Origin: an uncultured Bacilli bacterium | GTDB taxonomy: Bacteria; Bacillota_I; Bacilli_A; RFN20; CAG-826 | Reading direction: 5' to 3' | NCBI GenBank assembly: GCA_934140155.1 | Contig: CAKPBC010000008.1 | Coordinates: 1 to 64,000 of the forward strand | Length of the DNA: 64,000 nt | In this document: positions 20,906-59,259 of the stretch, piece after piece | How positions within the stretch are numbered: position 1 is the first letter of the stretch | How the letters are laid out: the number at the start of each line of letters is the position of its first letter | Notes under the pieces: generated by a model | Seen by the model: only the letters and a program-made list of their open reading frames with translations | The model's database searches: none | Told to the model about the DNA's origin: nothing | Position numbers and translations under genes: made by a program

Positions 20906-20940
20906 ATTGACTTTTATACATTAAAAATACTATTATATTA

Positions 20941-23159: not shown

Positions 23160-23278
23160 GAACAAAATACGTGGAAAGAAGAGGCGCCCGCTTCTCACCT
23201 GATTCACAAAGTGAATAGGTAAATGTCACATATCGTTAAGATATTTTCACGGGCGCATCCTGCGTCCGTTTTTTAGTT
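23160..23278 (+). ncRNA. L20-responsive leader/attenuator of the infC operon
   Basis: Alternative pairing GAGGCGCCCG vs CGGGCGC, terminator GGGCGC-ATCCT-GCGTCC followed by T6, located between promoter and infC RBS. Confidence 0.55.
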
Positions 23279-23294
23279 CAAAGGAGGAATTATT

Positions 23295-39075: not shown

Positions 39076-39089
39076 AAACATACCCCTTG

Positions 39090-40206: not shown

Positions 40207-40224
40207 AAATGTTAGTTCCTTTCA

Positions 40225-40803
40225 TTAAAATAATAAAAGTTTATTAATATAATATTTAATTTTATAATCTTTAGTATTAAGTGTAATAAAGCCAATAATG
40301 TTATTGTCTCCATAAATGACCTTTTTTTGAGTCATTACAGAAAGTAAAAATCTTTCATCATGTACATCGACACTATTTTCTTTTGCTATTAATATATCAA
40401 AATCACTAGCATCAGATACCCCTTTGGTTATTTCCCCCATATATTCAAAATCAACAATTTGATATATTTTTCCTTCTGATATAACAAATAAACTGCAACA
40501 TTTTGGACAAACACTATAATTTGATTTAGCTATTAATTGTTTAGCTTTAGGAATAAAAATATCTCTTAAATATTTAAAATCTATATGTTCGTTTTTATTA
40601 AATAAGTTGGGATTGGCAAATAATATTTGTCCTTGTCTTGCACTGCAACAATTTATAACAATTACCTTGCCATATTTATTATTTAAAATTCGTATTTGAA
40701 GATTATTTTTTTCTTTTAAATCATAACAAAGCGAAGAATAATTTGTTAATTGCTGTGCAATGTATATTGTATCGTTTTCTTTATAAACAATTGCTTCTGT
40801 CAT
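40225..40803 (-). CDS. HslV-like paralog 2 (Thr1 present, Asp17/Gly18 replaced)
   Basis: MTEAIVYKENDTIYIAQQ; shared NPNLF..FIPK block with paralog 1. Confidence 0.5.
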   Translation of the reverse strand: MTEAIVYKENDTIYIAQQLTNYSSLCYDLKEKNNLQIRILNNKYGKVIVINCCSARQGQILFANPNLFNKNEHIDFKYLRDIFIPKAKQLIAKSNYSVCPKCCSLFVISEGKIYQIVDFEYMGEITKGVSDASDFDILIAKENSVDVHDERFLLSVMTQKKVIYGDNNIIGFITLNTKDYKIKYYINKLLLF

Positions 40804-41421
40804 TTAAAGTTCCTCCCAACACGAAGATATTTTTGTTGTTTCTATGCTTCCATCTTCATTAAATATTAGTAATTCATTTGTATTAGATTTATATACAATA
40901 AAAGGATAACTTGATTCAGATAACAAATTATTTGTTTCTTTAAATATCATTTTTAACATATCGATGCCACTTAACTTTTTATCATAGGCTTTTTGAACTT
41001 TAAATATATAATAATTTTCTCCTGAGGCATTAAGCCCCCATACCAAATCAACACAATTAGCACCTATATCATAAATTCTCTTTCCATCCATAATCATCAT
41101 TTCAAATGTTGTATCCACTATGGCACTAGATTCAAATGTGGCTGCATCATTGTTCACTATAAAATCTAGATATTTGGGATAAAATTCCTTAAGCATAAAC
41201 TCTTTTGTTAGTGGACTAGGAAAATTATTAGGATTAATTTCATTAACAAATTTATAAAATAGTTTATATTCACCAACATAAGCAATTACAATATTTTTAA
41301 ATTTTTGTATTTTAGCTTGTCTACTATTAATATCATGTATTTTGCTACTAGATATGATTTTTAATGTATCCGCTACTAAATAACTCTCATTACCACATTT
41401 ATACCCAATTATAAATCCCAT
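40804..41421 (-). CDS. HslV-like paralog 3 (Thr1 replaced by Gly; likely non-catalytic)
   Basis: MGFIIGYKCGNESYLVADT aligns with paralog 1 N-terminus; Asp17 retained. Confidence 0.5.
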   Translation of the reverse strand: MGFIIGYKCGNESYLVADTLKIISSSKIHDINSRQAKIQKFKNIVIAYVGEYKLFYKFVNEINPNNFPSPLTKEFMLKEFYPKYLDFIVNNDAATFESSAIVDTTFEMMIMDGKRIYDIGANCVDLVWGLNASGENYYIFKVQKAYDKKLSGIDMLKMIFKETNNLLSESSYPFIVYKSNTNELLIFNEDGSIETTKISSCWEEL

Positions 41422-42044
41422 ATAAATTCTTCCTTTCTTAGTTTTTTACTATTTCCATCAAAAGAAGTTATATTCCAATAGTCATCATTTGTATTTCCAT
41501 AAAGTTTAAAATCGTTTTCATTTTGTTTATCACAATCATATACTTCGATTAAATTATCTAATGAAATTACAAGTTTATTATTTTTTTTAATGATATTGTT
41601 CATTACGCCTTGAGGTATAAAATCATCATGAAATTCATTGATTTCTGTTATTAGCATATTTCCCTCAATTCGATAGGCATTATTATCGATGATAATAATG
41701 ATTTCTCCATCAAATCCAATTGTATTATATTTTTCATTGTTTCTTAATTGATAAATATTTTTTAAAGATTCAATAATATCAAATTTTAAATTATTGATTA
41801 TAAATGGCAAATCAAATTGTTCAATATTTTGTAATCTCTCTTGAAATAACATTTTTAAATACAATTGAGCACTTTTTTGCATTTCAATAAATAAAATAGT
41901 AATGTTATGGTTAGGATTTTCAATGAATTGAATATCAGCATAATTCGAACCAGCATACTCATTTATTGTTTCAACCATTATTAATCTATGTTTAAAAGCA
42001 AAATCAAAACCTTTTTCGGCTTTTTTTAATAAAAATATATCCAT
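41409..42044 (-). CDS. Hypothetical protein of the HslV-like operon
   Basis: 211 aa, no recognisable motifs. Confidence 0.4.
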   Translation of the reverse strand: MDIFLLKKAEKGFDFAFKHRLIMVETINEYAGSNYADIQFIENPNHNITILFIEMQKSAQLYLKMLFQERLQNIEQFDLPFIINNLKFDIIESLKNIYQLRNNEKYNTIGFDGEIIIIIDNNAYRIEGNMLITEINEFHDDFIPQGVMNNIIKKNNKLVISLDNLIEVYDCDKQNENDFKLYGNTNDDYWNITSFDGNSKKLRKEEFIWDL

Positions 42045-42193
42045 AGTAAAACTCCTTATTGTATAGAATAAAAATTGTTGAATTTCAGTTATATTTAAAT
42101 TTAACGTCCATTCAACAAATTGATATGCATTGCTATTTCACTTATTTTTATAGCAATGCATATTTAGATTATATGTTAACTTTATTTTATCAC

Positions 42194-43483
42194 TTAAATG
42201 TTAACAATTTGTTTTAATTGTTTGATAGTAACAAATTTATTTTTTTCTAATGCCTTTGCCACTAAAGCAATTTCCTCTTTATATTGAGATACAATATTTG
42301 TAGCTTTTTCTTTATATTCTCTTAATTTAATATTTGCTAGTTCTTGCCCACGTTCATTTAATGAACGAGCAACATGGTTCTTTTTAGAATCAACTTGCGA
42401 ATATTCTAATCCAAATGCACCTTTTGCAATGCATAGTTCTAATGCTTTTGTTACTCTATTGATATCGTTAATAGAGTAATTTGATTCTTCTTGGAAGAAT
42501 ATATCTTGAACCGCTAATTCTGCTAAAGAGGCAATCGCATCATTTATCATTTGGCTATAAGTTCTATTTTCAATCACTTTATATGCTTGATCATAAACTC
42601 TATATTTATCAGTGATTTTGTTATATCCTGGGTCATCGGTAACATCAACATATGTATATTCTTTGTTAAGGATGACATTAGTTACTGTTTTAGCCGCAAG
42701 AGCATATATTGCTTTTTTGTTATCTAAGACATAATCAATGTAATCATATCCGAACAATGTTTTTTCAACATTTTTTATGATAATATCATCAGTTAATGTT
42801 TTATTAGATTTTCTAGCATCTTCAATTGATTTATTAATAATTTCTATTATTTCTAGGCTAGATGCTCCACATATTCTTTTAATAATAGTTTCAATGTCTA
42901 CATCTTTATCATTAATATCTTTTAAACAATTTTCAATGAGAAGTCTTCTTTCATCATTATCTGGTGATAATAATGTTACTCTTCTTATTAAATATTGCTC
43001 TTCTAAAGTTAATGGCAAATCAAATAATGGTAATCTAGTGGTGATAATAGCAAATACATTAGTAGTTGTTTTTAACTTTTCAACTAATTGATTTAGCATA
43101 TCTTTTTTTACATTACGATTAGTTTTAAGTTCTTCAAAGCTATCAAGTAATAATACTACAGTTTTAGTATGATCTAATGATTCTAAGATAGACTTAAACT
43201 TTGTACTAGGATCTTCGCTATCAATTAATTCTTTGCAATTAATTTCTTTTGAAGCAACTCCACTATTTTCAATGATTGCTTTAGCTATAGTTGTTTTGCC
43301 GTTTGCGGCTTCACTTTCAATAGCGAATGCTTTTGGTAATTCTTTGAGTTCTTTTTGATATTCTTCATAATTTTTAAGAAGATTGATAATTTTAATTGCT
43401 TCTTCTTTTGCTGCGTTATATCCGATAATTTTATTTAATGATTTATATTCGTTTGTGTTAGTCATAGTTTTAATTTCCTCCAC
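42194..43483 (-). CDS. FtsH-like AAA+ protein lacking TM segments, with degenerate Walker B and inactivated M41 zinc site
   Basis: AKEEAIKIINLLKN..ANGKTTIAKAI vs FtsH AKEEL..GPPGTGKTLLAKA; LLLDSFEE instead of hhhhDE; AIITTRLPLFDLP (sensor 1/SRH); YALAAKT in place of HEAGH. Confidence 0.6.
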   Translation of the reverse strand: MEEIKTMTNTNEYKSLNKIIGYNAAKEEAIKIINLLKNYEEYQKELKELPKAFAIESEAANGKTTIAKAIIENSGVASKEINCKELIDSEDPSTKFKSILESLDHTKTVVLLLDSFEELKTNRNVKKDMLNQLVEKLKTTTNVFAIITTRLPLFDLPLTLEEQYLIRRVTLLSPDNDERRLLIENCLKDINDKDVDIETIIKRICGASSLEIIEIINKSIEDARKSNKTLTDDIIIKNVEKTLFGYDYIDYVLDNKKAIYALAAKTVTNVILNKEYTYVDVTDDPGYNKITDKYRVYDQAYKVIENRTYSQMINDAIASLAELAVQDIFFQEESNYSINDINRVTKALELCIAKGAFGLEYSQVDSKKNHVARSLNERGQELANIKLREYKEKATNIVSQYKEEIALVAKALEKNKFVTIKQLKQIVNI

Positions 43484-43632
43484 ATATTTTTGTTTTATAA
43501 ACTTTGTTTTCTATTTTTAAAAAGATAATGATATTTTGATTTTTAATTATTTATGATTTTTTAATTTTTAATTTTTAAGATATTTACCGAATCCCTATTT
43601 GATAAAGGATTCGATAAATTATATTTTATGAG

Positions 43633-43872
43633 TTAGTTATCTTGCCATAGGCATCTAAATGCCTTGAGGACAAAATATAGACCAGACTTTCTAAAGAAGA
43701 TGTCATGAAATACTCCACCGCATCCGCTTCTTCTCATCGTTCTATAATTTATAGCGAAGATAAGTAATCCAACTATACACATAAGCCAAGCAAGTGCGAA
43801 GCAAATAACGAACGCTACCACTAAGAACAAGCTTGCAATTACTCTAGGGACAAATAATAATGCTTTTTTCAT
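43633..43872 (-). CDS. Small membrane protein (79 aa)
   Basis: Two hydrophobic helices, C-terminal Cys/Arg-rich tail. Confidence 0.4.
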   Translation of the reverse strand: MKKALLFVPRVIASLFLVVAFVICFALAWLMCIVGLLIFAINYRTMRRSGCGGVFHDIFFRKSGLYFVLKAFRCLWQDN

Positions 43873-43907
43873 AATTTTAATTTCCTTTATAAAATTATTT
43901 TTAAGCT

Positions 43908-45176
43908 TTAATTAATTTTAATAAATTCTTTAAATTGCTCTGCAGTTATGAATTTCTTTGTTGTTAATTTTTTGGCAATTAATTCGATTTCGTGTCGATA
44001 TTTAATTACAATTTTAGTTGCTTTATCTTTATATTCGATTAATTTGTTATTTAACAACTCTTTACCATGCTTATTTAAAGAAGTATTTACTCCGTGTCCT
44101 TCATAGTCTGGTTGAGTGTAACCTAACCCAAGGGCACCATTTTTAATATATTTCTCTAATAATAAATAAGCTTGGAATGTGTCATTCGAAGAATAATTAG
44201 ATCCTTCTAGGAAGAATACTTCTTCTGATGCTAAACCTGATAATTCAATAATTATTTCATTTAATTTTTCGTTAACAGATTTATTATCATCAATTGATAT
44301 TTCATCATAGTAGTTATCTAAATGAGTAAGTACTTCATAATCATCAATATCTGATATATCAATGTAATCATATTCTTTATTTAAAACAAGATTAGTTACT
44401 GCTTTAGCAGCAAGGCGATATGCTGTTTTTTTGTTAGAAACGATATGCTCATGATAATCATAGCCCATTAATAATTTACCAGCATTTTTTACAATGATAT
44501 CATCAGTTAATGGTTTATTTAATAATTTAGCATCTACAATTGATCTATTAAGAACTTGAATTGTTTTTAAGTTTGATGCACCATTTGTTCTTTTAATGAT
44601 TGTTTGAACATCAACATTTTTGTTTTTAACATCTTTCAAACACTCTTCAATTAAGAGTGCTTTATCTTCTTTGTTTAATGATGGCATTGTTAATTTTTTA
44701 ATCCAAGAACGATCTATAGATGGTAACAACATCCAATTAATAAGCATTTCTGAAGCAATAATGACAAATAAGTAAGGATTGCTTTTTAACTTTGTTAATA
44801 ACATATCCATTATTTGTCTTCCCTCATTGGAAGTAAAATCTATTTCTTCAAAGTTATCAAGGAAGAATATAGTTGTTTTTGAATCTCTTACCTTATTCAA
44901 TAACATTTTTACTTCCTCAATTGCACCAACTTTTATTAGCAATTTGCAATCAACTTCTATTGAATTAACTTGATTACTTTCAATAATTATATGAGCTAAA
45001 GTTGTTTTTCCATTACTTCTATCGCCTTCAATTACCAACATTCTAGGTTGACACTTTGATGTTGTTTGATTTTCTTCAAGGTTTTGAAGAAGATCAATAA
45101 TTTTTTCTGCTTCTTTTTTAACTTCGTTACATCCAATAAGTTTATTTAATTTTGTATATTTGTTTGTGTTAGTCAT
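43908..45176 (-). CDS. FtsH-like AAA+ paralog 2 (GDRSNGKTT Walker A, FLDNFEE Walker B-like, no HEXXH)
   Basis: Paralogous to 42194..43483 over its full length. Confidence 0.6.
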   Translation of the reverse strand: MTNTNKYTKLNKLIGCNEVKKEAEKIIDLLQNLEENQTTSKCQPRMLVIEGDRSNGKTTLAHIIIESNQVNSIEVDCKLLIKVGAIEEVKMLLNKVRDSKTTIFFLDNFEEIDFTSNEGRQIMDMLLTKLKSNPYLFVIIASEMLINWMLLPSIDRSWIKKLTMPSLNKEDKALLIEECLKDVKNKNVDVQTIIKRTNGASNLKTIQVLNRSIVDAKLLNKPLTDDIIVKNAGKLLMGYDYHEHIVSNKKTAYRLAAKAVTNLVLNKEYDYIDISDIDDYEVLTHLDNYYDEISIDDNKSVNEKLNEIIIELSGLASEEVFFLEGSNYSSNDTFQAYLLLEKYIKNGALGLGYTQPDYEGHGVNTSLNKHGKELLNNKLIEYKDKATKIVIKYRHEIELIAKKLTTKKFITAEQFKEFIKIN

Positions 45177-45333
45177 ATATCGTTTATTTCCTCCACATAT
45201 TTTTTTCTGCTTTAATTTAATACAAGTTATTCGATTTTTTATTTGGTTTTGTGTTTTCTATTTTCTTCAAACACTAATTGATATTTAATTTTTTGTAAAT
45301 CTTTATATTTAATTTTTAATATTTAGTGAATCA

Positions 45334-45453
45334 TTATTTATTAATTAAAGATTCTATGAATTTAATGGTTGCTGTTATCCAACCATAGTAGCAAGCTGCA
45401 TAGCCAAACGCTATGCAGAGTATTGATGAGAAAATGCTTTTGATTACTCTCAT
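45334..45453 (-). CDS. Unlisted small hydrophobic peptide (39 aa) with GGAGGG RBS
   Basis: ATG preceded by GGAGGGATTTAA; MRVIKSIFSSILCIAFGYAACYYGWITATIKFIESLINK. Confidence 0.35.
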   Translation of the reverse strand: MRVIKSIFSSILCIAFGYAACYYGWITATIKFIESLINK

Positions 45454-45539
45454 TTAAATCCCTCCTTTACTAAGATTTGTAGACTAATAATTAATCCTCC
45501 TTCTTCGTAAATAAGATAATTTCTAGATAGTATTTACTG

Positions 45540-45731
45540 TTATACTATTGATGTAATGATGAGAAATACTCCACCAACTAAAGCGCCTAATGCAATTATG
45601 ACAAACATAATTCCATAAAAGCCTCTTAAGTTCTCTGGTGTTCTCTTTATACACAAGATTGTAGATACAATTGCAAATGCGATGAGTAATACTCCAATAA
45701 TCACATTTGTGACAAGTGATAATAGAATCAT
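45540..45731 (-). CDS. Small two-TM membrane protein (63 aa)
   Basis: RBS GGGAGG; two hydrophobic helices. Confidence 0.45.
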   Translation of the reverse strand: MILLSLVTNVIIGVLLIAFAIVSTILCIKRTPENLRGFYGIMFVIIALGALVGGVFLIITSIV

Positions 45732-45804
45732 TGATGTTTCCTCCCTTCTTTTTAATAATCTATGAAGTCTTTGTTCATAGACAAACGCTAGTATACGGGT
45801 TAAT

Positions 45805-45823
45805 GTTACATTATTGATGTAAC
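45805..45823. promoter_or_regulatory. Palindromic box GTTACAT-TATTG-ATGTAAC (copy 1)
   Basis: Perfect 7-5-7 inverted repeat; identical extended 24-mer at 46510. Confidence 0.5.
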
Positions 45824-45899
45824 AAACTTTTTTTTGTTAATTTTTTTTTAAAATAATTTAAGTTATTTTTTTTGTATGCGATTTTTCTTTTATATATCC

Positions 45900-46328
45900 T
45901 TATATTAATATACTAGTCTCAATACTATTTCCGTTTAGAAGATTTAACCTAATGTCTTTATCACATTCTTCACACATAGCGTCATATCTTAGCCTTTGCC
46001 ATGTGTTCTTTTTTTTGTATTTAAGATTATTACGTGTTTCCCAGAATATTTCATCTTCCATATCACATAAGCGATTTTGTTCTTGAATAGAATGAACCTT
46101 GAAGTATGGATCATTATTCATTTCTTTAATTTCTAAATAATATTCTTCAACTGTAATTCTTTCAACGTATCTAATTGCGTCTTTATGGTGATGTTTTACT
46201 CTTGGAAATGCTCTTGCTAGTTTAGCGGCTTCTTCGCCATCTTCCGCTCGAAGGAATAACCATTTAAGGACATATCTGTTTTTTCCTACATGTCCACATT
46301 TAGCAAGTACTTTATAAAAATTATTCAT
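45900..46328 (-). CDS. Hypothetical protein (142 aa)
   Basis: ORF with RBS; no family recognised. Confidence 0.4.
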   Translation of the reverse strand: MNNFYKVLAKCGHVGKNRYVLKWLFLRAEDGEEAAKLARAFPRVKHHHKDAIRYVERITVEEYYLEIKEMNNDPYFKVHSIQEQNRLCDMEDEIFWETRNNLKYKKKNTWQRLRYDAMCEECDKDIRLNLLNGNSIETSILI

Positions 46329-46509
46329 ATTAACTACCTCCTTATTTAGTTGTTAATTTAGAAGTATAAATATTGGTATTTAATTTTTATTGACGCCACT
46401 AGTTTGGCTATATATGCATTAATTATGGTAATTAACGCTTTAACTACTATCCTCCTTTCTTTTTTCCTATGTGCTCTTTCACATAAGCAAAGCAATTTTA
46501 AACTAATAT

Positions 46510-46528
46510 GTTACATTATTGATGTAAC
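46510..46528. promoter_or_regulatory. Palindromic box GTTACAT-TATTG-ATGTAAC (copy 2)
   Basis: Identical to 45805 copy including flanks TGTTACATTATTGATGTAACAAAC. Confidence 0.5.
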
Positions 46529-46582
46529 AAACATTTTTTATTTATTTCTATATGAATAAAATAGAATAATCATACTTATTAT

Positions 46583-47650
46583 TTAATCACCTGACTTAAA
46601 GTTAAATCTATTATAATTTTCGATAATTTTCGAGCAAATGATTGACGAAGAAAAATTAGAAAGGGCAAACACTTGTTTACTTAGTAGTAAATCATAATCT
46701 GTTATTGAATCAATAATGTCATCTATATTAGTTTCAGAATAATTGTATAATAATGGCATATCAATTTCTTTTAATAACTTATTAGCATCTGAAATAACAA
46801 TAGTGCCCTCCATAATTGAATAGCTTACCCTATCATGAATGCAGTAATCAAAATTAGGATTGCAATTCAAGATATACTTATATTTTTTAGATGTTGATAT
46901 TATTTTGTTGTAATTAAGCGGATTAATAAAAACAACATTTTTTGAAAAAATCAAATTATCTGGATTGTTTGAAGCAATTATTACCATATGCTTTTTTATA
47001 GAAGAAATTGATTTTAATCTTTTTTGTATTCTAATATATCCGTTAACTATTTCGAAAAATTCTTTTTCATTAATAATTTGATGTGTTTCTCTATAATTGC
47101 AATAAAATTCTCCAAAACTTGAATCAAAATCATATTTATCTAAAAAATCAAGTATTAACTCTTTTTCTTTGCTTTTATCTATTAAATTTTCAAAAAAACT
47201 TTTACTTTTTATTTTTATTGGCGCAAATATGGCATCTATTTTATTTTGACATCTTCTTGTTTGAGTTTTAAAAGGAATTGGCAAGGTCAAATAATCACTT
47301 CTATTATTTTGAATAAACAATTTAAAACTATTATCTATAAATATCATACGATTATATTTTGAATAATAATCACAGTTATCGTATCTTAATGGATTATCAA
47401 TTATCCACTGATAATTAATAACTTCGTATAAGTCATATAATGGTTTTTGATCTTTATAAAAATGATATTGCCCAATATTTAATGTAAAATTTATGCGTTT
47501 ATTAGTCAGACAATAAATTGCTTCATCAATAGTATTAGCAATAAAAATATGTATATGATTATTAATAAACATATCAATAATAACTTTATAAAATTCATCA
47601 AAAGAGTTATATACTCCTTTATAGTTATCTTTTAAAATTAAAACATTCAA
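46583..47650 (-). CDS. Hypothetical protein, possibly degenerate GT-B glycosyltransferase-like
   Basis: C-terminal HDRVSYSIMEGTIVISD resembles GT4 E-x7-E region. Confidence 0.3.
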   Translation of the reverse strand: MNVLILKDNYKGVYNSFDEFYKVIIDMFINNHIHIFIANTIDEAIYCLTNKRINFTLNIGQYHFYKDQKPLYDLYEVINYQWIIDNPLRYDNCDYYSKYNRMIFIDNSFKLFIQNNRSDYLTLPIPFKTQTRRCQNKIDAIFAPIKIKSKSFFENLIDKSKEKELILDFLDKYDFDSSFGEFYCNYRETHQIINEKEFFEIVNGYIRIQKRLKSISSIKKHMVIIASNNPDNLIFSKNVVFINPLNYNKIISTSKKYKYILNCNPNFDYCIHDRVSYSIMEGTIVISDANKLLKEIDMPLLYNYSETNIDDIIDSITDYDLLLSKQVFALSNFSSSIICSKIIENYNRFNFKSGD

Positions 47651-47683
47651 TGTACATTTCTCCTAATTCATAAAATCTTTATA

Positions 47684-48544
47684 TTAATAATTCTTAGTCC
47701 ATTCATCTTTTTGCTTTTTGGAAACACTCCATTTTGTTCTAGGATTATTCTTTTCATTTATATGGCAATACTTACAAAATTTATTAGGTGTCCTTAAAAA
47801 ATCTAATATCTCTTTACTTGAATGTTCATATATATCTATACCTGTATTAGTAGTATCATATTTTTCATTAAAATATTCATTAAATAAAGGAATATATGCG
47901 GCATGTGGGCAAAAATATAACATTCCATCACGCAAATTGCAACAATTATTAGCATACTTACATTCTAAAAAAGTTTTTTTGTAATCTAATAAATCCATTT
48001 TACTCAACCCCATATTTTTCCAAACATTATTAGTGGTTCTAACATTAAATGTTTCAATCATTACTTGTTTACTTTTTACAAAACGATATAATTCTTCATA
48101 ATCAATACCTATTGGATATGTAGAAACACATATTTCCACATTATTTTTCTTACATGCATCAAAGAATTTTTCGGGCATGCTTTTAATTAAAATTCCATTT
48201 GTAATTAATTGAAGTTTCGCATTCGGCAAGCAGCATCTAGAAATATCTAAATATTTAATAATATTGGGATTAGTTAATGGTTCACCGCCCATAATATGTA
48301 ACTGTTTGCAATTTTCTCCAAATAGTTCATAAATTCTTTTCAAATCTTGTTCATATTTATCTAATTCATAAATAGAATTTTTTTTAGCCAATGGTGAAAA
48401 ATGGTCACATCCACTGCAATTCAGATTACATGAATCAATAACATGAACTTCAAACCAAAATGGAATTCTTTTGGATTTTTTTCCTATTATTTTATATTTT
48501 ATTATTTCCATTTGCTTTGATATTTCACTTCTTTTTTTTATCAT
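47684..48544 (-). CDS. Radical SAM enzyme with C-terminal auxiliary Cys cluster
   Basis: CNLNCSGC (CX3CX2C), GGEPL, C-terminal CX5CC..C and CKYC. Confidence 0.65.
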   Translation of the reverse strand: MIKKRSEISKQMEIIKYKIIGKKSKRIPFWFEVHVIDSCNLNCSGCDHFSPLAKKNSIYELDKYEQDLKRIYELFGENCKQLHIMGGEPLTNPNIIKYLDISRCCLPNAKLQLITNGILIKSMPEKFFDACKKNNVEICVSTYPIGIDYEELYRFVKSKQVMIETFNVRTTNNVWKNMGLSKMDLLDYKKTFLECKYANNCCNLRDGMLYFCPHAAYIPLFNEYFNEKYDTTNTGIDIYEHSSKEILDFLRTPNKFCKYCHINEKNNPRTKWSVSKKQKDEWTKNY

Positions 48545-48550
48545 AAATAT

Positions 48551-49831
48551 TTACCTCCTTTTTATCGCCTTTATAACAAAGGAAGTGGGATACTTTTCCT
48601 CATGATATCTAAGTTCATCAAATAAACTTATATTAAATTTTGTTAATAAACTTGAAAAAATATCTTTCAACATATATTCTCTATATAAACATTTAGGATA
48701 CTTTTCACTTCTTTCAAAATTATAAGGCATATATCCGTAAAATGGCGAAGAATAAAAATAATCATCATTAATTTGAACAGCCAAAGATTTATTATCTACT
48801 AATTTTAAAAAAGGGTGAAAATCATGCAAAATATATACACCATTGTCTTTTAATAGCGATGCCACATTTTCCATGAAAATATTGATATCTAAAAAATAAT
48901 GTAAAACACCAACTGTAGAAATTACCATATCAAACTTATTTCCACAAGTTTCAATTTTTTTAGACAAATCAACATTTATATATTCTAATTTTTGTTGCAA
49001 ACAATCGGCACATTCACTTGCATATTTTTTTCCAGAAGTAGAATAATCGAAAACAGTAACGTGAGCACCATTTAAAACCAAAGAATTGGCTAATCTGCCA
49101 CAGGAATCACATACACAAGCAATTTTTTTTCCTTTTATATCTCCAATATATGGATAATATTTTTGAAAAATATTGTCTTTACCATTATATAAATTTCTTG
49201 CCATTACATCAGGTGTTCCATATCTTTTTAACCAATAATCATAAGTTTTAAAATCCCATGCTATTCTATTATTTGATGAAAATTCTTTTTCTCCCAAAAT
49301 TGATACAATTTCGTATAAAGGATCTCTACTGCATCCAACAATATTAAGCTCTTTTTCAATGATGTGTTTTAATTTTTGAATTTCCTTTACTTGATATAAA
49401 GCAATATCTTCTATGGAAAAATCATAAACACTTTTTAATCCATTTGTATCAAGCATTCGTTCATATATTTTACGCGGATTTGTTTTCAAATAAAAATATA
49501 CATCACCAATTTTATGATAAGAATCAGGTCTAAAATCAAGAAGAGTTTTATCTTTTAATAAATAACCAGCATGATAATCTAAAAAAACATATCTATATTT
49601 AGAATTATATTTTAAAATTTGTTGAAGAGATAATTCATATAGTTTATTTTGCTGATTCAATGTTAATGAACCATTATCTGCTTTTCCAAATAATTTAATA
49701 GATAATTCATCTTGTATTTTATTCCTTTTTATATGCACAGCATCGTTACCATAATAATTTAAAAGACGTTTTATTAAAGTTGTTTTTCCACTTCTTTGAA
49801 CTCCATATATAAGAACTATCATTTTATTCAT
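48551..49831 (-). CDS. P-loop kinase-like domain fused to class I SAM-dependent methyltransferase
   Basis: GVQRSGKTTL Walker A; C-terminal MTase motifs (ACVCDSCGRLA, DMVISTVGVLHYF). Confidence 0.5.
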   Translation of the reverse strand: MNKMIVLIYGVQRSGKTTLIKRLLNYYGNDAVHIKRNKIQDELSIKLFGKADNGSLTLNQQNKLYELSLQQILKYNSKYRYVFLDYHAGYLLKDKTLLDFRPDSYHKIGDVYFYLKTNPRKIYERMLDTNGLKSVYDFSIEDIALYQVKEIQKLKHIIEKELNIVGCSRDPLYEIVSILGEKEFSSNNRIAWDFKTYDYWLKRYGTPDVMARNLYNGKDNIFQKYYPYIGDIKGKKIACVCDSCGRLANSLVLNGAHVTVFDYSTSGKKYASECADCLQQKLEYINVDLSKKIETCGNKFDMVISTVGVLHYFLDINIFMENVASLLKDNGVYILHDFHPFLKLVDNKSLAVQINDDYFYSSPFYGYMPYNFERSEKYPKCLYREYMLKDIFSSLLTKFNISLFDELRYHEEKYPTSFVIKAIKRR

Positions 49832-51233
49832 CTCCTGATATATTAGTTATTATTTTTTGAATATCTTCATTGCTAAATCCAAGATTTATCAGATAAGTAT
49901 TAACATCATGATATGTATATCTAAAACATTCTAAAAAGCAAGAAAACTTTTTTTTGGCATCGTGGTACTTTGTATTATGTTCATATTCTCCTCTTTGATT
50001 TTGATATATTTCATCGGTCAATAAATATTCGCAAATGATTTCTTCATCTGAAGAGCCTAATAACATTTCACATAGCATAGCAACGATTCCTGTTCTATCC
50101 TTACCAATCATACAATTAATTAAAATTTTATTACTAGATTCTTTTATATAGTTAAATATATTACGAAACGCCTCTTTTTGAGCCAATAAATACAAATAAT
50201 ATTCATTTAAATTTTTTACAAATTGAATATTATCTTCTTTCTTTTTTTTATTTGCATGAAAAATCGTTATATTTATCCAGTTAAAATTATCAATTAAAAA
50301 GAATGGCTTTTCTTTATCTTTAAAATTTCTTAAATCAATAATAGTAGTTACATTCATGTTTTTTAGAGTATCAATGTCTTCACTATTAAAAGGAATATAA
50401 TCACTTCTAATTAAGTTTGTATTAAAAGTGTTTGCTTTTACAAATCTAGTATTATTTGTAGATTTTAGCAATGATTCAAAACATACAACTCTACCATTTG
50501 TATTAAAATAATTTTCAAATGTATAATAATTCTTACTAAAAAAGAATCGTAAAACTTTTATATTTTGGTTTGGGTTGTCTAAATATAAAATTGCAGCTCT
50601 ATGTGTGCCATCTCTTATAATATTGTCATTATTATAGACAATTATATATTGATTATTCTCGCCATATTTTAATTTTTTAAATGAATCAAGAATTTCATTG
50701 AATCTTTCCTTATGACTTTGATTATGCAAGTTAGTCAATGTTTTTATTTCAAGATTTTCTTTGTTAGTTAAAAAGCATAAATGTTCACTTTCAGATACGT
50801 GCTTTATAGATTTATCTATAGAGAAAATAAGTAAATCTTTTAAAGAAATTACTTCTTCTTTTACATAGAGTAAATATGGTAAATCTATAGCAAGCATATA
50901 TCCCATATATACACCATCTAAAGCATTATAATCCAATCCTGAAACTGGATAATTATTCCTTAAATCACACTTGGTTATTACAAAAAGACTATTAAATTCA
51001 GTTAAATTTAGCAAATAATCTCTATTTTTTAAAATTATCCTAATTTTGTCATTTGAAACATATGCATTTAAGAAAGAATAACTAGCAGAAGAAATAAAAA
51101 AAGCTTTTTTTGTTTTTTTTAAGAACCAGTAAATTTCTTTTTCTAAGCGATACAAAAAAGAAACAAATATTAAATATTCAATTTCATTCATTACTATATC
51201 ATCTTGTTTTATTCGTACTTTAAATTTTTTCAT
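49824..51233 (-). CDS. Two-domain protein with C-terminal Y_phosphatase3-type tyrosine phosphatase domain
   Basis: CMIGKDRTG (CX5R) and TTIIDLRN motif; N-terminal 300 aa unassigned. Confidence 0.5.
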   Translation of the reverse strand: MKKFKVRIKQDDIVMNEIEYLIFVSFLYRLEKEIYWFLKKTKKAFFISSASYSFLNAYVSNDKIRIILKNRDYLLNLTEFNSLFVITKCDLRNNYPVSGLDYNALDGVYMGYMLAIDLPYLLYVKEEVISLKDLLIFSIDKSIKHVSESEHLCFLTNKENLEIKTLTNLHNQSHKERFNEILDSFKKLKYGENNQYIIVYNNDNIIRDGTHRAAILYLDNPNQNIKVLRFFFSKNYYTFENYFNTNGRVVCFESLLKSTNNTRFVKANTFNTNLIRSDYIPFNSEDIDTLKNMNVTTIIDLRNFKDKEKPFFLIDNFNWINITIFHANKKKKEDNIQFVKNLNEYYLYLLAQKEAFRNIFNYIKESSNKILINCMIGKDRTGIVAMLCEMLLGSSDEEIICEYLLTDEIYQNQRGEYEHNTKYHDAKKKFSCFLECFRYTYHDVNTYLINLGFSNEDIQKIITNISGDE

Positions 51234-52191
51234 AAGGATTTTTAGTTGCCTTCCCTATTTTGCTAAAATCTATGTACTTCGCCATATCTAAATTAGATTC
51301 ATAAGGATTCAATATTGCAATTCCGCTAGCAGAAGAAAATGTTAATTCGCCAAAATATATTTTTTCGCCAACGGCATACAAATCCACTCTAACAAAATCA
51401 AAATACAAAGAAAGTTCAGATGTGATTTTTTGCATTTTATCTAACACATTAACATCTAACTTCATATCAATCATTTTATACTCAGGACACTGGAAATATG
51501 TCATTTCATAATTTTTATTAAAAATCGTACGTTTATGATTATTAAATCTATTAGTGTCAACGGAAAAATACTTCATATCACCATTAAAACAAAAAAATTT
51601 ATAATCTGGCAAATCATTTGAATTGGCTAAATATTGTGTAATAAAAATACATGGTTTTATATTTTTGTATTGCATTTCGTATCCATGGCAATAAGCATAA
51701 TTAATCTGCAATTCTTTATTTAGTTTCTTTTGAAGCTTAAAAAAACCTTTTTTCCCTAATTTGTCTTTACTACGAACAATATGAGTCATATGTGCTCCAT
51801 GATTGCATTGAATGACAAAACTATTAGGTAATTCTTCAAAATTAATTTCCATAGCATTATAAAAATATTCTTTTCCATTATTTTTAATAATTGGTATCAA
51901 AAAATCTTCACCTATTGTGTTTTTTATGAAACTTCTAACTAAATATTTATCTGTGCAATATGTTTTTATATAATTGTCATTTTGAAGTTTTAAAACTTGC
52001 TGCTTTTCTGTAAATGTTTTAGGATTATCTAAGTCTAACTTTAATCCTGTTTTTTTATAGTACCAACATTTTAAGTACTCTTCTTTTTTATTTGTTCTTT
52101 CAAACTTTAATTCACGTCTTATTTCTTTTTTCCAAATTTCAATATAAAAAATATTTTCTTTAAGCCATTTAATTAATTTCATTGTTATCAA
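51220..52191 (-). CDS. ATP-grasp amidoligase, TupA-like family
   Basis: DLPDYKFFCFNG and RVDLY..GELTFS signatures. Confidence 0.5.
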   Translation of the reverse strand: MITMKLIKWLKENIFYIEIWKKEIRRELKFERTNKKEEYLKCWYYKKTGLKLDLDNPKTFTEKQQVLKLQNDNYIKTYCTDKYLVRSFIKNTIGEDFLIPIIKNNGKEYFYNAMEINFEELPNSFVIQCNHGAHMTHIVRSKDKLGKKGFFKLQKKLNKELQINYAYCHGYEMQYKNIKPCIFITQYLANSNDLPDYKFFCFNGDMKYFSVDTNRFNNHKRTIFNKNYEMTYFQCPEYKMIDMKLDVNVLDKMQKITSELSLYFDFVRVDLYAVGEKIYFGELTFSSASGIAILNPYESNLDMAKYIDFSKIGKATKNPYEKI

Positions 52192-53587
52192 TTCCTAAAA
52201 TCGCATCCGCAAGTTTATTCTGTTCTAATTTATACGATACTTTATGTAAAATACTTTTTAATGCAGAAGAACATTTGCAATAATATACAGGCTCACGCAA
52301 CTTTATAATTTCATAAAAAAAGTCATCAATTGTATTTAGGTACTTAACTCCAATGTTGTTGCCAACAATGGTATGTATAACTGTTAGTTTATTATTTATT
52401 AAAGTTGGAAGTCCAGCACTTATGCCTTCAAATATCCCACGGCCAAAAGTTTCCCAATTTGATGTTGAAATATTAATATCACATAATTCTAATAAAGAGG
52501 CTAACTCTTCTTGTAATATAGATATATGGAATATAATGTATTTATCTAAATTATTAATTAATATATAATGTAGCATTTCATCATATATCTCTTTTTCTTG
52601 AATAGTGGTCACTAAATGTAATTTTACTCTTATTCCATTTTTTATTAATTTGTTCAATAATTCAAGTTGCATTATATTGTTTTTTTGTTTTTTTATAGAA
52701 CCTATACAAATTAGATTTATTTCATCTCCACATGATTTTCTGATTCTAAAATGTATATGCGTGTCAATTCCTCTATATATAACATTGATTTTATCTTCAG
52801 ATATTAGATATTCACTTATTAAATCTTGTTTTTCTTCTATTGATGGAGTAATAATTTTATTCACAGATTGTAATACATTACATTCCTGCTTTGAATATTC
52901 TATGGGTACAAATTCTCCAGCACGTTGATATGAATGAGTACAAAACATTGGAAATAATATGGTTTTTTTCCAAAACGATTCTCCAAAATCGCATCCAAAG
53001 AATTTACTTACATGCGCAGTTACAACTTTATCATATTTTTCAAAATCTTTTAAAGCTTCAATGTTTGTATCTAGATTTTTTAGTCGCCTTATAAATTTAT
53101 TATTAAGAGCATCCTTATACCTATAATAAAAAACATTTTTAATATAGTTATTAACATATATTTCATTGTTTTTTCTTATAAAAGCAACATCCAATTTACA
53201 TCTTTTTTTTAATGTGTCTATTAGTTGTTTGGCTAAAATGCTACCACCATCTATATCCTTTCCATATCCGGGAAATTTTCCCAAATAAAGTAAAACTTTC
53301 ATATCCGATCTTAAGAAATCATTATATGCTTTATTCAATGCACAAACAAATGGATGATGGCCTCCAATAAATTCTATGCACTCATTAATGTATTTAATCT
53401 CGTCACATAAAATATATTGTAAATTATAATCCGTATTTTGTATTTTATGTCCAATATACACTGAAAAGTCTTCTTTTTTCACTTTCCCATTAATAGAAAA
53501 ATCTTTCAACTTAGTAAATCTATTAACTAACTTTTCATCTTGAAAAAATTTTTTATAGCAATAATTATCTAAAATCAATTTTTTCAT
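52169..53587 (-). CDS. Glycosyltransferase family 4-like (C-terminal GT-B domain) with N-terminal extension
   Basis: ETFGRGIFEGISAGLPTL (E-x7-E). Confidence 0.55.
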   Translation of the reverse strand: MKKLILDNYCYKKFFQDEKLVNRFTKLKDFSINGKVKKEDFSVYIGHKIQNTDYNLQYILCDEIKYINECIEFIGGHHPFVCALNKAYNDFLRSDMKVLLYLGKFPGYGKDIDGGSILAKQLIDTLKKRCKLDVAFIRKNNEIYVNNYIKNVFYYRYKDALNNKFIRRLKNLDTNIEALKDFEKYDKVVTAHVSKFFGCDFGESFWKKTILFPMFCTHSYQRAGEFVPIEYSKQECNVLQSVNKIITPSIEEKQDLISEYLISEDKINVIYRGIDTHIHFRIRKSCGDEINLICIGSIKKQKNNIMQLELLNKLIKNGIRVKLHLVTTIQEKEIYDEMLHYILINNLDKYIIFHISILQEELASLLELCDINISTSNWETFGRGIFEGISAGLPTLINNKLTVIHTIVGNNIGVKYLNTIDDFFYEIIKLREPVYYCKCSSALKSILHKVSYKLEQNKLADAILGIDNNEIN

Positions 53588-53812
53588 AAATTACACTCCG
53601 CCTTAAATACATTTTAATTAACTCTAAAACAACTTATAATCTTCCTTCATTATTTTGAAAAAAATACTCTTCAATTTAATACACTTAATAAAACGAAATA
53701 AATAATTATAGTTTTAGTTCTTTGTTTTTTATTTAATTAATCTAATAATCTAAATTTTTATAATTAATGTTAGCAACAACAATTAAAACATAATCAAATT
53801 GAGTTTGTTTGA

Positions 53813-54349
53813 TTACGTTAAATTCATTATTTTTTGCACTTGATTGGTTTTTAGATAAATTTGTCTATCAAAATCAAAATTATTCTTTTCAATTGGAATA
53901 CCTAGAACACTTTCTAACAATTTGTATTTAGTATCTATGGTATAAGAAAATAATTTTAAATACTCAGAAAACATGTCGATCATTAGTATATTAGAATTTT
54001 TCAAACTCGACAATAAGCACCTTTGATTTGAAAATAAAACTGTTTTTTTCGCGTGACATGCTAAATAAGTAAACAAATAAAAATTCTCATCTACAATTGC
54101 ATAGTGCTCATGTAAATCAATATTTTTTAATTTTGAAATTACTTTTTGGTTCATTTTTTCTCGAATGTTTTTTGGAAAGCCAGACACAAAAACCACTTTT
54201 TTTAAACTATTGTACATTTTTTTGGCAACATATGTTTTCCCAATACATGGTTTTCCAACTACAATGATGCTATTCGAATTAGACTTCATTATCGTTTGTA
54301 AAATTCCGGTTTCATATTCATTTATTTTCTTTAACAAATTTATATCCAT
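53813..54349 (-). CDS. Small P-loop NTPase
   Basis: VVGKPCIGKT Walker A. Confidence 0.4.
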   Translation of the reverse strand: MDINLLKKINEYETGILQTIMKSNSNSIIVVGKPCIGKTYVAKKMYNSLKKVVFVSGFPKNIREKMNQKVISKLKNIDLHEHYAIVDENFYLFTYLACHAKKTVLFSNQRCLLSSLKNSNILMIDMFSEYLKLFSYTIDTKYKLLESVLGIPIEKNNFDFDRQIYLKTNQVQKIMNLT

Positions 54350-55487
54350 ATTTTCGTGAATTAATAATTTGAATTCTAATCCATTTGTTTATTTGCATAA
54401 GTTGATTATTTTCAACAATTTCATCTAGACGTTTTATTAAATACGGGAAGAATCCCTTTACAAATCTACACAACTGAGTATCAGAATTCAAAAGAGAGCC
54501 ATTTTCATTATATGCATGACAATTGGCACCACCATTGCAGTATAGATAAAGATTGCATTTTGATTTACAATTTTTTCTTCTAATTATTGATTTTTTAACT
54601 ATTTCTTCATATTTTTGCGTTTCATAAATATCACTTATTTTATTAACTTCATTTATGTTAGTAATTTTAAAATCTTCATCTGAAAACCTTGTACAATTAA
54701 AAATATTACCATTTGGATCAATACTAACCCACTTATAAAGGCAACCAACTAATTCACATATTCGCCCTTTAGAAGATCCTAAAATTGTTAAAACATACTT
54801 TGCAAGTGGTGTGAAAACAGGACCATTTTTATCGTAAAGCCAATGTTCAAAAAGTTTTTTAAATCCATCTAAATATTCTTCATCATTCATTAAGTAAGGA
54901 ATGGCAGTATTTGAGTTCTTCATTTTAAATATTGGATTTAATTGAAATGGTATATTCTTACTTTTAAAATCTTCATATATATCAATTAAATGTCCAATAT
55001 TCTTATTAGTTACAACACAAATTACCGGAACAATGTATCCGAGTTGCTTGGCTTCTTTCATCCTACTTTCAACAATTGATGTTTGTTCTCTTAATACATT
55101 ATTATAAAATCCATCATATGAAAAAGAAAAAATAAATTTATTTTCGAGAAGAAATTTTAAAATCTCCCCTGTACATAAAACACCATTTGTCTGCAAATAA
55201 TTGCGTATTATAGTTCCTTGGGCATATTTTTTTTCGAATTCTAAAACTTTTTTGTAAAAATCAATTCCAAGCAAAAGAGGTTCTCCACCAAACCAATTAA
55301 AATCAACTTTTTTATAATTAGTTACATAAAAGCGAATTATTTTCTCAACTGTCTCTATACTCATTTTAGATTCACAATAGTTTTGTCCGGCCTCATAGCA
55401 ATGTTTGCATCTCATATTGCAAGACAAAGTCACCTGAATAATTACAGAAGCATATGACCCGTCAAGAAAATTAGCATTCGTTGACAT
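54318..55487 (-). CDS. Radical SAM/SPASM-domain peptide-modifying enzyme
   Basis: CNMRCKHC (CX3CX2C), GGEPLL, C-terminal SPASM cysteines (CELVGC..NCTRF..CKSKCNLYLYCNGGANCHAY); start overlaps precursor stop (TAATG). Confidence 0.7.
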   Translation of the reverse strand: MSTNANFLDGSYASVIIQVTLSCNMRCKHCYEAGQNYCESKMSIETVEKIIRFYVTNYKKVDFNWFGGEPLLLGIDFYKKVLEFEKKYAQGTIIRNYLQTNGVLCTGEILKFLLENKFIFSFSYDGFYNNVLREQTSIVESRMKEAKQLGYIVPVICVVTNKNIGHLIDIYEDFKSKNIPFQLNPIFKMKNSNTAIPYLMNDEEYLDGFKKLFEHWLYDKNGPVFTPLAKYVLTILGSSKGRICELVGCLYKWVSIDPNGNIFNCTRFSDEDFKITNINEVNKISDIYETQKYEEIVKKSIIRRKNCKSKCNLYLYCNGGANCHAYNENGSLLNSDTQLCRFVKGFFPYLIKRLDEIVENNQLMQINKWIRIQIINSRKYGYKFVKENK

Positions 55488-55681
55488 TAAAAACTATCGC
55501 CCCATGATGGAGTGTCAGCCCAACCATGATCTCCCCAAGAATCGCTCCATTCACGCCAACGATTTCCTGAATCATCTTCATTTTGCAATTCATCATAAAA
55601 ATTGCTAGAATCTTCATATAATGAATTCCATTCTGCCAATAAAGCATTGCTGGTTTTTTCATTATTTATAAAATCATTCAT
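55487..55681 (-). CDS. RiPP precursor peptide candidate: acidic leader plus C-terminal core with five W-x-(D/E) triplets
   Basis: Core GNRWREWSDSWGDHGWADTPSWGDSF; strong RBS AGGAGG; translationally coupled to rSAM/SPASM gene. Confidence 0.6.
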   Translation of the reverse strand: MNDFINNEKTSNALLAEWNSLYEDSSNFYDELQNEDDSGNRWREWSDSWGDHGWADTPSWGDSF

Positions 55682-55701
55682 AATTAAATCCTCCTAAAAA
55701 A

Positions 55702-55731
55702 ATTATACCCCCCCCCGTAGCATTTTGTCAA
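55702..55731 (-). promoter_or_regulatory. Promoter TTGACA-18-TATAAT with G9 homopolymer in spacer (candidate phase-variable)
   Basis: Minus strand reads TTGACAaaatgctacGGGGGGGGGTATAAT then tttttAGGAGG and ATG. Confidence 0.55.
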
Positions 55732-55746
55732 ATATAATTTTGCCTT

Positions 55747-55824
55747 GAAGTGCTATGAAGTGCTATTAATAAAGTAGACACAATTTAGCATTTATGTAGA
55801 CAGTTATATGTCATTTGTAGACAT
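55747..55824. repeat. Intergenic direct-repeat array: GAAGTGCTAT x2 tandem, then TGTAGACA-type x3 with 22-bp phasing
   Basis: GTAGACA at 55774, 55796, 55818. Confidence 0.6.
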
Positions 55825-55857
55825 TAATTTTATAATTGTATACAGAAAGGAGCTTTT

Positions 55858-56034
55858 ATGAACTCTACAAAAGATGAAAAAATAGAAATTGGTCGTCAAA
55901 TTTGCACTCATGAAATTACTATAGGTGATGCCGCTGAGAAATATAGCCTTAATTGGTATACAGTAAGAGACTATATGCGTCAATATAGAGATTTAAATCA
56001 TCTTCCACCAATGTCTGATGGTAAAGTGAAGTGA
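55858..56034 (+). CDS. Small HTH protein (58 aa) resembling IS3-family OrfA N-terminal HTH; unlisted in ORF track
   Basis: RBS GAAAGGAG; EKIEIGRQICTHEITIGDAAEKYSLNWYTVRDYMRQYR pattern. Confidence 0.45.
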   Translation: MNSTKDEKIEIGRQICTHEITIGDAAEKYSLNWYTVRDYMRQYRDLNHLPPMSDGKVK

Positions 56035-56101
56035 AAAATTTAAAAATGTAAATAAAATTCTTTTTTGTTATTATTTTTATAAATTGATTAAGTAACGAAT
56101 A

Positions 56102-56308
56102 TTAAAACTTTGGTAACAAAGCCGCTAATAAATCACCTTCACCGATTCTTGTTCCATATTCATCATAAGTATAAGTCCCATCAAATCTACCAATTCTACG
56201 ACCATATCGATCATAAATATATTTGTTATTTCCTTGCTCATCGGTTCTGCCTATTATAGTTCCATAACGATCTTTTAAATATTTAGTATTCATATAATAT
56301 TCCTCCAA
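56102..56308 (-). CDS. Small repeat protein with three YD-like DRYGxxIGRxD repeats
   Basis: KDRYGTIIGRTD / YDRYGRRIGRFD / YDEYGTRIGEGD. Confidence 0.45.
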   Translation of the reverse strand: MEEYYMNTKYLKDRYGTIIGRTDEQGNNKYIYDRYGRRIGRFDGTYTYDEYGTRIGEGDLLAALLPKF

Positions 56309-56332
56309 TTTTCGAATATAAAACCAACTTTA

Positions 56333-57334
56333 CTAATTTGCCAAATTAGGTACTGGTACCTGAAAATTATTAACATCTGCAGTAATGAGACTACTACCAA
56401 CAGTATGTTTTACATTCATTGTTTGACTATTAGCAAGACAATATTTGTATTTTGCTGATTCCGGCTTTCCGTCATCCCAAGTAACATCAACACCATACCA
56501 ACTAGTAATGTTTTTAGTATAATTCCACATATGCCCAACATTTTCAGATATTCCTACTACAGTTATAGTTTCAATTTCTACTAAATCAGAAAGTAATTGA
56601 TATGTTTTAGCATATCCTTCGCATACCGATCCCGTAGAATTATCATTATCAATCGCACCAAGTATATTATGCGCGTGCTTATTAGTGGATGGAGTTCCAT
56701 CTACATATTCGTAATAGGTAGAATCGCAAATATAGTCGTGAATAAAACGTGCTTTTGTAACATTTGAAGAATTATTTACCGATTGAAATTTAGAAAGAAA
56801 ACCATTTTTATAATTTTCAATTTTAGTATTATATGTTGCTCTAACAGAAGATGATATATACTCGTCATCAAAAAGGACATTAATTACATCACAAAACATT
56901 CCATCGATAACACCCATAGTATATTGAAATCCATTTTTCAAAAAATAAAATTCCGGATTATTATGTAAAAAAGAAAAGTAAACTGCTTTTACCACATCTA
57001 AATTTTCATATTTAATTTGACAAATAACTTGCGAATTATAATCAGCGTTATTTTCTAATACATTTTTGCAAGCACCATATAAGTTTTGATACAACGATAT
57101 CGCTTCATCTTTGTAAGCAGAATAAATCGAATTATCTTTAAATTGTAAATAATCATAACGCTTAATATCATAATTATATGATGGCGCTATACTATTTGCG
57201 ATACTATTAAAATTAGAACTTTTATCAGCACTTGGAAAATGAATAAGCATATCGCAAGAAGATAACAAAGAAGATATTAGCCCTAGCCCAATTAAATATT
57301 TAGATTTATTATTTGTTTTAATCTTGTTATTCAT
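56333..57334 (-). CDS. Transglutaminase-like cysteine-protease-fold lipoprotein
   Basis: Lipobox LLSSC; Cys in GVCEGYAKTYQ, His/Asp in HMWNY...WYGVDVTWDD. Confidence 0.5.
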   Translation of the reverse strand: MNNKIKTNNKSKYLIGLGLISSLLSSCDMLIHFPSADKSSNFNSIANSIAPSYNYDIKRYDYLQFKDNSIYSAYKDEAISLYQNLYGACKNVLENNADYNSQVICQIKYENLDVVKAVYFSFLHNNPEFYFLKNGFQYTMGVIDGMFCDVINVLFDDEYISSSVRATYNTKIENYKNGFLSKFQSVNNSSNVTKARFIHDYICDSTYYEYVDGTPSTNKHAHNILGAIDNDNSTGSVCEGYAKTYQLLSDLVEIETITVVGISENVGHMWNYTKNITSWYGVDVTWDDGKPESAKYKYCLANSQTMNVKHTVGSSLITADVNNFQVPVPNLAN

Positions 57335-57449
57335 AAAATCCTCCGTAAATATGAAACAACTAGCATTTCATTTATGCACATATATATTAGTTTATTTATT
57401 AGCAATTAGTCAATTTATTTAAACAAAAACACGACTAATCATAACTAAA

Positions 57450-57715
57450 AAATCGTTTTACTTTTTATAAATTTGACATATAATAAATACGTACTTAGAT
57501 GGACCGTGTTATGGCACGTAAAAGCTAAGCTGTGCTTGGGCAGGTTAAAATACCAAGACAAAGTATTTATAATACTTCCTTATAGTTAGGTGAATACTAT
57601 AGTCCACGATTAGACTTAAAATTCTATCGACTATAGACATTCGAAAGGGTGTTGGGGCTCTTAGCCAGCATAAAACCATTAATCAACCAATTACGAGAAT
57701 ACTTTATGTATTCTC
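57450..57715 (+). ncRNA. Candidate structured small RNA ending in rho-independent terminator
   Basis: No ORF over 60 aa on either strand; GC-enriched relative to flanks; terminal GAGAATA-CTTTATG-TATTCTC followed by T6. Confidence 0.3.
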
Positions 57716-57724
57716 TTTTTTAAT

Positions 57725-57780
57725 ACCAGCAAATAAAAAAATGTATCCTAAACTTTAGGTAACAAAGTCTAAGATACATT
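57725..57780 (-). terminator. Terminator after tyrS (long hairpin AAATGTATC..GATACATTT then U-run)
   Basis: Inverted repeat 57738-57780 followed on minus strand by T7. Confidence 0.55.
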
Positions 57781-59009: not shown

Positions 59010-59250
59010 TTGTTTTCTCCTTTTAAAAAAATAAAAATTCGCCCCTATTAAAGGACGAATTAATCGTGTTACCACCTTTATTCGTAGATAATTCGCATTA
59101 TCTACCTTAGTGAGTCTTAGACTCAATACTTAACGCGCATTAACGAGTGTTATTAGCACTAACTCCAAGGTGTATTCATAATTAATAACTATTTCTTTGC
59201 ACCATCCAGAAACTCTCTACTAATTTATTAATTACTACTATCCTTATCTT
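59010..59250 (-). ncRNA. T-box riboswitch leader of tyrS
   Basis: Minus strand AAAGGTGGTAACACG T-box-like sequence and terminator TTCGTCC..GGGCGAA followed by T-run immediately upstream of RBS. Confidence 0.6.
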
Positions 59251-59259
59251 CGCTTTTTA

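Follow-up and report, generated by a model that had tools for sequence, protein, structure and literature searches.

The window, that is, the whole 64-kb stretch of DNA that was analysed, contains a three-gene RiPP module on its minus strand. Its features are listed in Table 1. A short precursor gene adjoins the co-oriented gene of a radical SAM (rSAM)/SPASM enzyme, and the precursor is translationally coupled to this enzyme. The same module (precursor, rSAM, and 178-aa protein) was found again in relatives. The glycosyltransferase gene and the subsequent genes are separated from the module by a 226-bp gap, and they were left out of the unit because they are absent from the clusters of the relatives. 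No regulator gene is conserved across the homologous clusters of the module. Some relatives (among L004, L005, L006, L086, and L089) contain two rSAM genes and C-terminal CCCC motifs. Two of the relatives have a tRNA gene upstream of the module, namely tRNA-Glu at about 0.3 kb in L086 and tRNA-Gln at about 0.4 kb in L005.

Table 1. Coordinates of the promoter, the RiPP module, and the divergent ORF in the window.
Feature	Position	Strand	Remarks
-35 hexamer TTGACA	55726..55731	-	Read from the sequence and promoter scan
18-nt spacer, AAATGCTAC + G9	55708..55725	-	Read from the sequence and promoter scan
G9 homopolymer, length-variable, abutting the -10 box	55708..55716	-	C9 on the plus strand, starting at 55708
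-10 hexamer TATAAT	55702..55707	-	Read from the sequence and promoter scan
TTTTTT between the -10 hexamer and the Shine-Dalgarno	55696..55701	-	Read from the sequence
Shine-Dalgarno AGGAGG	55690..55695	-	Read from the sequence
ATG of the precursor	55679..55681	-	8 nt after AGGAGG
Precursor peptide gene, 64 aa	55487..55681	-	LLAEWNSLY leader motif; core with four W-x-D units (WSDSWGDHGWADTPSWGD)
Radical SAM/SPASM peptide maturase, 389 aa	54318..55487	-	Start overlaps the precursor stop (TAATG)
P-loop-like protein, 178 aa	53813..54349	-	Overlaps the rSAM gene; conserved third gene of the module
Divergent 58-aa ORF ('HTH'), truncated IS3-like OrfA	55858..56034	+	Comparison with L097

The homologue alignment showed no variation in the CxxxCxxC motif of the rSAM (C23, C27, and C30) or in its columns of C-terminal Cys residues. 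The best full-length NCBIfam matches are anSME (167 bits) and DynA (152 bits), for curated cut-offs of 349-450 bits; other SPASM peptide maturase models also align end to end, well under every curated cut-off. The best PDB match is 4k36 (E = 2e-28). By score, the enzyme belongs neither to the dynobactin nor to the darobactin maturases (the DynA cut-off is 450 bits; DarE gives 60 against 650 bits). The module is similar to the dynobactin (DynA), darobactin (DarE), and anSME-type systems in the full-length rSAM match, and its precursor has a Trp-rich core; it differs in scores that fall far below the curated cut-offs and in a precursor family that has no model. The precursor itself has no match in Pfam or NCBIfam. 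The precursors of four lineages contain a common leader (L-x-EW-x-SLY) and a common core (SW-x-D-x-WGDHGW-x-D), and this family, with its LLAEWxSLY leader and W-x-D repeats, has only a handful of members. Only about 15 homologues with at least 35% identity were identified among 5.8 billion proteins. The window species was not among the matches of a GTDB genome scan, where the best match was 38% identical. The RiPP family, defined by this precursor and an anSME/DynA-like rSAM/SPASM enzyme, appears to be undescribed.

The minus strand from 55731 to 55679 reads TTGACA-AAATGCTAC-GGGGGGGGG-TATAAT-TTTTTT-AGGAGG-ATTTAATT-ATG. This is exactly the arrangement claimed in the earlier note on this DNA, a TTGACA-18-TATAAT promoter with a G9 run, followed by AGGAGG and ATG. 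The promoter scan gave a 12/12 match at the G9 site, which is the sole such site within 53.5-57.5 kb. Promoters of the form TTGACA-N16-18-TATAAT occur twice in the whole window, where 0.15 are expected, and none of 100 shuffles reached two. The other perfect promoter is a TTGACA-16-TATAAT at 19996-20023 on the plus strand, just upstream of an ORF at 20048-20905. The homopolymer in the spacer of the window promoter is longer than about seven nucleotides and lies between recognisable -35 and -10 hexamers. The spacer would be 17 nt with G8, is 18 nt with G9, and would be 19 nt with G10; the arithmetic of the earlier note, in which the loss of one G gives a 17-nt spacer, is correct. The hexamers presumably form a working promoter. 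No Rfam family matches at the locus.

The G-run is also unusual for its genomic background. The GC content of the window is 28.3%, and G9 is the sole G/C homopolymer of at least 6 nt in it; the runner-up has a length of 5. The expected number of G/C runs of at least 9 nt per window is 0.004 under an iid model and 0.005 under a first-order Markov model, which bears out the claim that a 9-nt G/C tract is rare at about 28% GC. No G/C run longer than 6 nt was found in 158 kb of loci from other strains of the same species.

Relatives of the module fall into run-bearing and run-free lineages. One run-bearing group, lineage B, encodes an rSAM with 65% and precursors with 72-81% identity to those of the window. 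Its promoter is TTGATT-TTTGC-Gn-TAAAAT-N6-AGGAGG, in which a homologous TTGAYW -35 hexamer is kept and the G-run again abuts the -10 box. The two hexamers, the run between them, the N6, and the AGGAGG are kept while the flanks diverge between the window species and lineage B. Beyond the segment bounded by the -35 hexamer and AGGAGG, the upstream sequences of the run-bearing lineages are unalignable; the retention of the run within such flanks therefore suggests that selection has kept it against the -10 box. Six lineage-B contigs from different assemblies (L004 and L103-L107) all stop no more than about 130 nt upstream of the G-run, which suggests a repeat or a strain-variable junction there.

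The distant homologues L005, L006, and L090 contain no run, and their spacers are fixed at 17 nt (TTGACA-17-TATAAT, TTGACA-17-TAAAAT, or TTGACA-17-TAATAT). In L005, L090, and the run-bearing relative L087, TGG lies directly 5' of the -10 box and forms an extended -10 motif (TGn). It is plausible that this TGG was the seed from which the G-run grew. The distance from the -10 hexamer to AGGAGG is exactly 6 nt in every run-bearing promoter (window, L004, L086, and L103-L107). Because the -10 box is always 6 nt away, the mRNA is predicted to start at the first base (A) of the Shine-Dalgarno. The predicted leader would be 14 nt, which is unusually short, and the run would not be transcribed from the window promoter.

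The length of the run differs among close relatives of the window. Over 6502 bp, L001 (ERZ28615590) aligns to the window with 0 mismatches, and the only gap falls at the run, which is G10 in L001. L095 (ERZ27287350, a 69,910-bp contig) also has G10; over 14,741 bp it shows 0 mismatches and again no gap other than the run. Both have a 19-nt spacer. Over the 14.7 kb compared between the window and L095, 6 T8 runs and 26 A/T runs of at least 7 nt are unchanged. L002 represents another strain, with 15 SNPs in 2874 bp, and it has G9. The G8 allele with a 17-nt spacer was not found among the window-species sequences compared (window, L001, L002, and L095); L102 begins inside the precursor and lies outside this comparison. 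As there are zero SNPs among the window, L001, and L095, one sample may underlie all three assemblies, and the difference between G9 and G10 alone could therefore be homopolymer noise.

Lineage B provides a second background. The sequences L004, L103, L104, and L105 are 4-19 SNPs apart, and all of them have G9, which gives a 14-nt spacer. From this spacing, G11-12 had been forecast as the requirement for a working spacer in lineage B, before L107 was retrieved with G12. L107 differs from L104 (G9) by 1 SNP and a 3-nt indel in the run over 1086 bp, and its allele is exactly TTGATT-17-TAAAAT. An alternative -35 element that would rescue the lineage-B G9 allele was also considered and rejected; by eye, AGCTTG, which stands where a 17-nt spacer would place the -35 element, agrees with TTGACA at 0/6 positions.

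Several relatives have interrupted runs. L106, from a T-interrupted sub-lineage with TTGAAT-TTTTGC, has G7TG4 and an 18-nt spacer. In the same sub-lineage, the 94-aa ORF call P0239 extends through the promoter as ...NFCGGWGKM..., from which G6TG4 and a 17-nt spacer can be deduced. L087, the sole relative found in a JGI metagenome scan, has AGTGGGGTGG and a 16-nt spacer, and L086 has G8C and a 14-nt spacer. The observed alleles have spacers of 14, 16, 17, 18, and 19 nt, and this natural allelic series is a ready-made experiment. The between-strain comparison of tract length proposed in the earlier note shows that the run differs in three sequence backgrounds, G9/G10 (0 SNPs, 14.7 kb), G9/G12 (1 SNP, 1.1 kb), and G6TG4/G7TG4. 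These length differences on near-identical backgrounds support the phase-variable promoter put forward there, with the qualification that G9 and G10, between perfect hexamers and with spacers of 18 and 19 nt, more likely differ in expression level than as a clean ON/OFF pair.

Taken together, the G-run is most likely a mutational dial, which turns the RiPP operon up, down, or off. In the proposed mechanism, the run would be a homopolymer prone to slippage that makes up the 3' half of the spacer in a sigma-A/sigma-70-type promoter, and this promoter would drive the precursor, the rSAM/SPASM maturase, and the small P-loop protein. Slipped-strand gain or loss of G's at replication would shift the -35/-10 distance by one base each, and the shift would reset promoter strength in a heritable and reversible manner. 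We regard it as fairly probable that the run is such a spacer-type, slippage-prone element, which changes the -35/-10 spacing and resets the strength of the RiPP-module promoter. The control of expression by spacing is assumed by analogy with porA and tp0126 (see below), and the changes in the run would have to be frequent enough for mixed populations, as we infer them to be.

Different expression states can be predicted for the two lineages. In the window species, G8 (17 nt) would give the maximum, G9 (18 nt) a reduced level, and G10 (19 nt) a weak promoter; the window allele itself, G9 with perfect hexamers, is probably active, though below the maximum. For lineage B, the prediction is OFF with G9 (14 nt) and ON with G12 (17 nt). 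The commonest allele of lineage B has the 14-nt spacer, and either most strains are OFF or the promoter works differently. G9 is the commonest length in both lineages, despite their different spacers (18 and 14 nt). The switching rate may be modest, because G9 is common to four SNP-distinct lineage-B strains. The presence of G9 in four lineage-B and two lineage-A (window-species) strains may reflect slow switching, or G9 may be favoured otherwise. The poly-G tracts of C. jejuni also centre on G9, through opposing biases of insertion and deletion; the G9 mode here could equally mean slow change. The large ORFs of the window that were scanned include neither mutS nor mutL, and the greater part of the genome is not covered by the window.

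The same data might also be explained by a site of evolutionary tuning or decay, at which occasional changes fix an expression level for each strain, including inactivation, and no bet-hedging mixtures arise. We consider this explanation unlikely, but it deserves attention. It fits the common G9 of strains separated by 4-19 SNPs in lineage B (four strains) and by 15 SNPs in lineage A (two strains), the location of the operon within a strain-variable island, and the interrupted variants (G8C, G7TG4, and AGTGGGGTGG), which resemble stabilised or decaying tracts. However, the run changes on backgrounds of 0-1 SNP, and its changes outpace substitutions by orders of magnitude. Lineages with just 65% identity between their rSAMs also keep the run in the same position, and at their genomic GC content of 28-42% an unselected G9 would be expected to erode.

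A very improbable alternative is that the G-run serves in protein binding or as a structural element, for instance as an operator or as a rigid spacer that modulates open-complex formation, and that its sequence rather than its length is selected. In its favour, G9 recurs in two lineages with different spacers (18 and 14 nt), and the poly-G of tprL, which overlaps the -10 region, acts by a mechanism other than spacing (PMC7864442). Against such an element, length variants and interrupted variants are tolerated, relatives manage without any run, and the homologous clusters lack a conserved regulator gene. Least probable of all is a static run with sequencing or assembly errors at the homopolymer: poly-G is error-prone on some Illumina chemistries, and the zero-SNP G9 and G10 contigs of the window species may represent the same reads in different pipelines, but a 3-nt gap between G9 and G12 in separate samples of one study would be an atypical consensus error, G6TG4 and G7TG4 form a third independent case, and all the other homopolymers are equal over 14.7 kb.

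Repeat-mediated promoter switching is textbook knowledge for the surface antigens of pathogens, and to our knowledge it is hardly documented in gut commensal Firmicutes. In T. pallidum, tp0126 has a poly-G in the -35/-10 spacer, with optimal expression at a 17-nt spacer; in N. meningitidis, porA has a poly-G between -35 and -10, and uses the same mode (PMC7864442). The window promoter is similar to both, as its G-run lies within a sigma-70-type spacer, the run length sets the spacing, and the alleles differ by whole G's (PMC7864442). The differences are in the target and in the type of data. The porA and tp0126 genes encode outer-membrane antigens of pathogens, for which switching and expression effects were measured; whereas the target here is a cytoplasmic RiPP operon in an uncultured gut Firmicute, where the effects of the run are predicted. 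In Mycoplasma hyorhinis, the vlp promoters of surface lipoproteins have a poly-A in the spacer, which acts as an ON/OFF determinant via spacing. They share with the window promoter a spacer homopolymer in a low-GC, Bacillota/Mollicutes-type genome; however, poly-A is the native composition there, whereas the G-run here stands against the genome composition. T. pallidum tprL and N. meningitidis opc also contain a variable poly-G/poly-C promoter tract, with lengths of 8 to 12 (PMC7864442, PMC3447861). Their tract extends over a hexamer and acts by means other than spacing, whereas the run in the window sits between intact hexamers.

By its architecture and polymorphism, the window promoter can be classed from its sequence as a candidate variable promoter of the porA/tp0126 type, and the mechanism is already known. 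As far as found, the new aspects are the host, an uncultured gut Erysipelotrichales bacterium and its relative, and the RiPP operon as the target. In a full-text literature search, no ranked paper combined phase variation with RiPPs, and reports of such promoter switching in RiPP or other natural-product operons were not found. What comes closest are variants of coding tracts in a bacteriocin-like island of gonococcal Neisseria (PMC11798529).

A further proposal, to which we give somewhat less than an even chance, is that production of the previously undescribed Trp/Asp-rich rSAM-modified peptide is a true contingency trait, for which a selected G-run would switch the operon stochastically in at least two diverged lineages of uncultured gut bacteria. 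If so, only a fraction of the cells would pay for or display the peptide, and the locus would be the first RiPP operon with phase variation through a simple repeat. Should the switch be real, gene presence alone could not predict expression of the peptide, and metagenomic surveys and heterologous expression would need to read the run length.

The module is located in a 19.6-kb strain-variable island (38126-57733) between rpsD and tyrS. The island is absent in L091-L093, and other cargo (DUF1643, WYL, and TnpB/IS607) is found in L094, L096, and L098. In the window, the cargo includes a GT1 glycosyltransferase, a TupA ATP-grasp protein, a Y_phosphatase3, an AAA-methyltransferase, a second rSAM, two AAA ATPases, a proteasome-like protein, and a WYL regulator. 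The island is possibly a defence or glycan hotspot; PADLOC identified only generic, weak rSAM or AAA matches among its proteins. The divergent 58-aa ORF upstream of the promoter is what is left of an IS3-like OrfA, as shown by L097, where a 119-aa version precedes an rve integrase (14168-15291). As an IS3-like OrfA remnant, it was ruled out as a dedicated regulator of the cluster; no called gene on record has exactly its sequence. The intergenic region at 55741-55857, just upstream of the -35 box, contains TGTCTAC three times and a tandem TAGCACTTCA twice, and these repeats are possibly an IS end. In L002, the tandem TAGCACTTCA repeat differs by a 1-nt indel, and the contigs L001, L002, and L097 all break within the IS3-like element.

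The lipoprotein encoded at 56333-57334 on the minus strand has a transglutaminase-like core and matches the Mycoplasma 'MAG6410 family' model with 41 bits. It is allelically diverse across strains, and its cluster has 24 members. TyrS shares 81% identity with MAG proteins of 'Erysipelotrichales bacterium', and one contig of the comparison set comes from a human gut metagenome. T-box leaders are present upstream of tyrS (59048-59259, minus strand) and thrS (20937-21145, plus strand), together with an L20 leader (23170-23281, plus strand), which fit ordinary Bacillota features.
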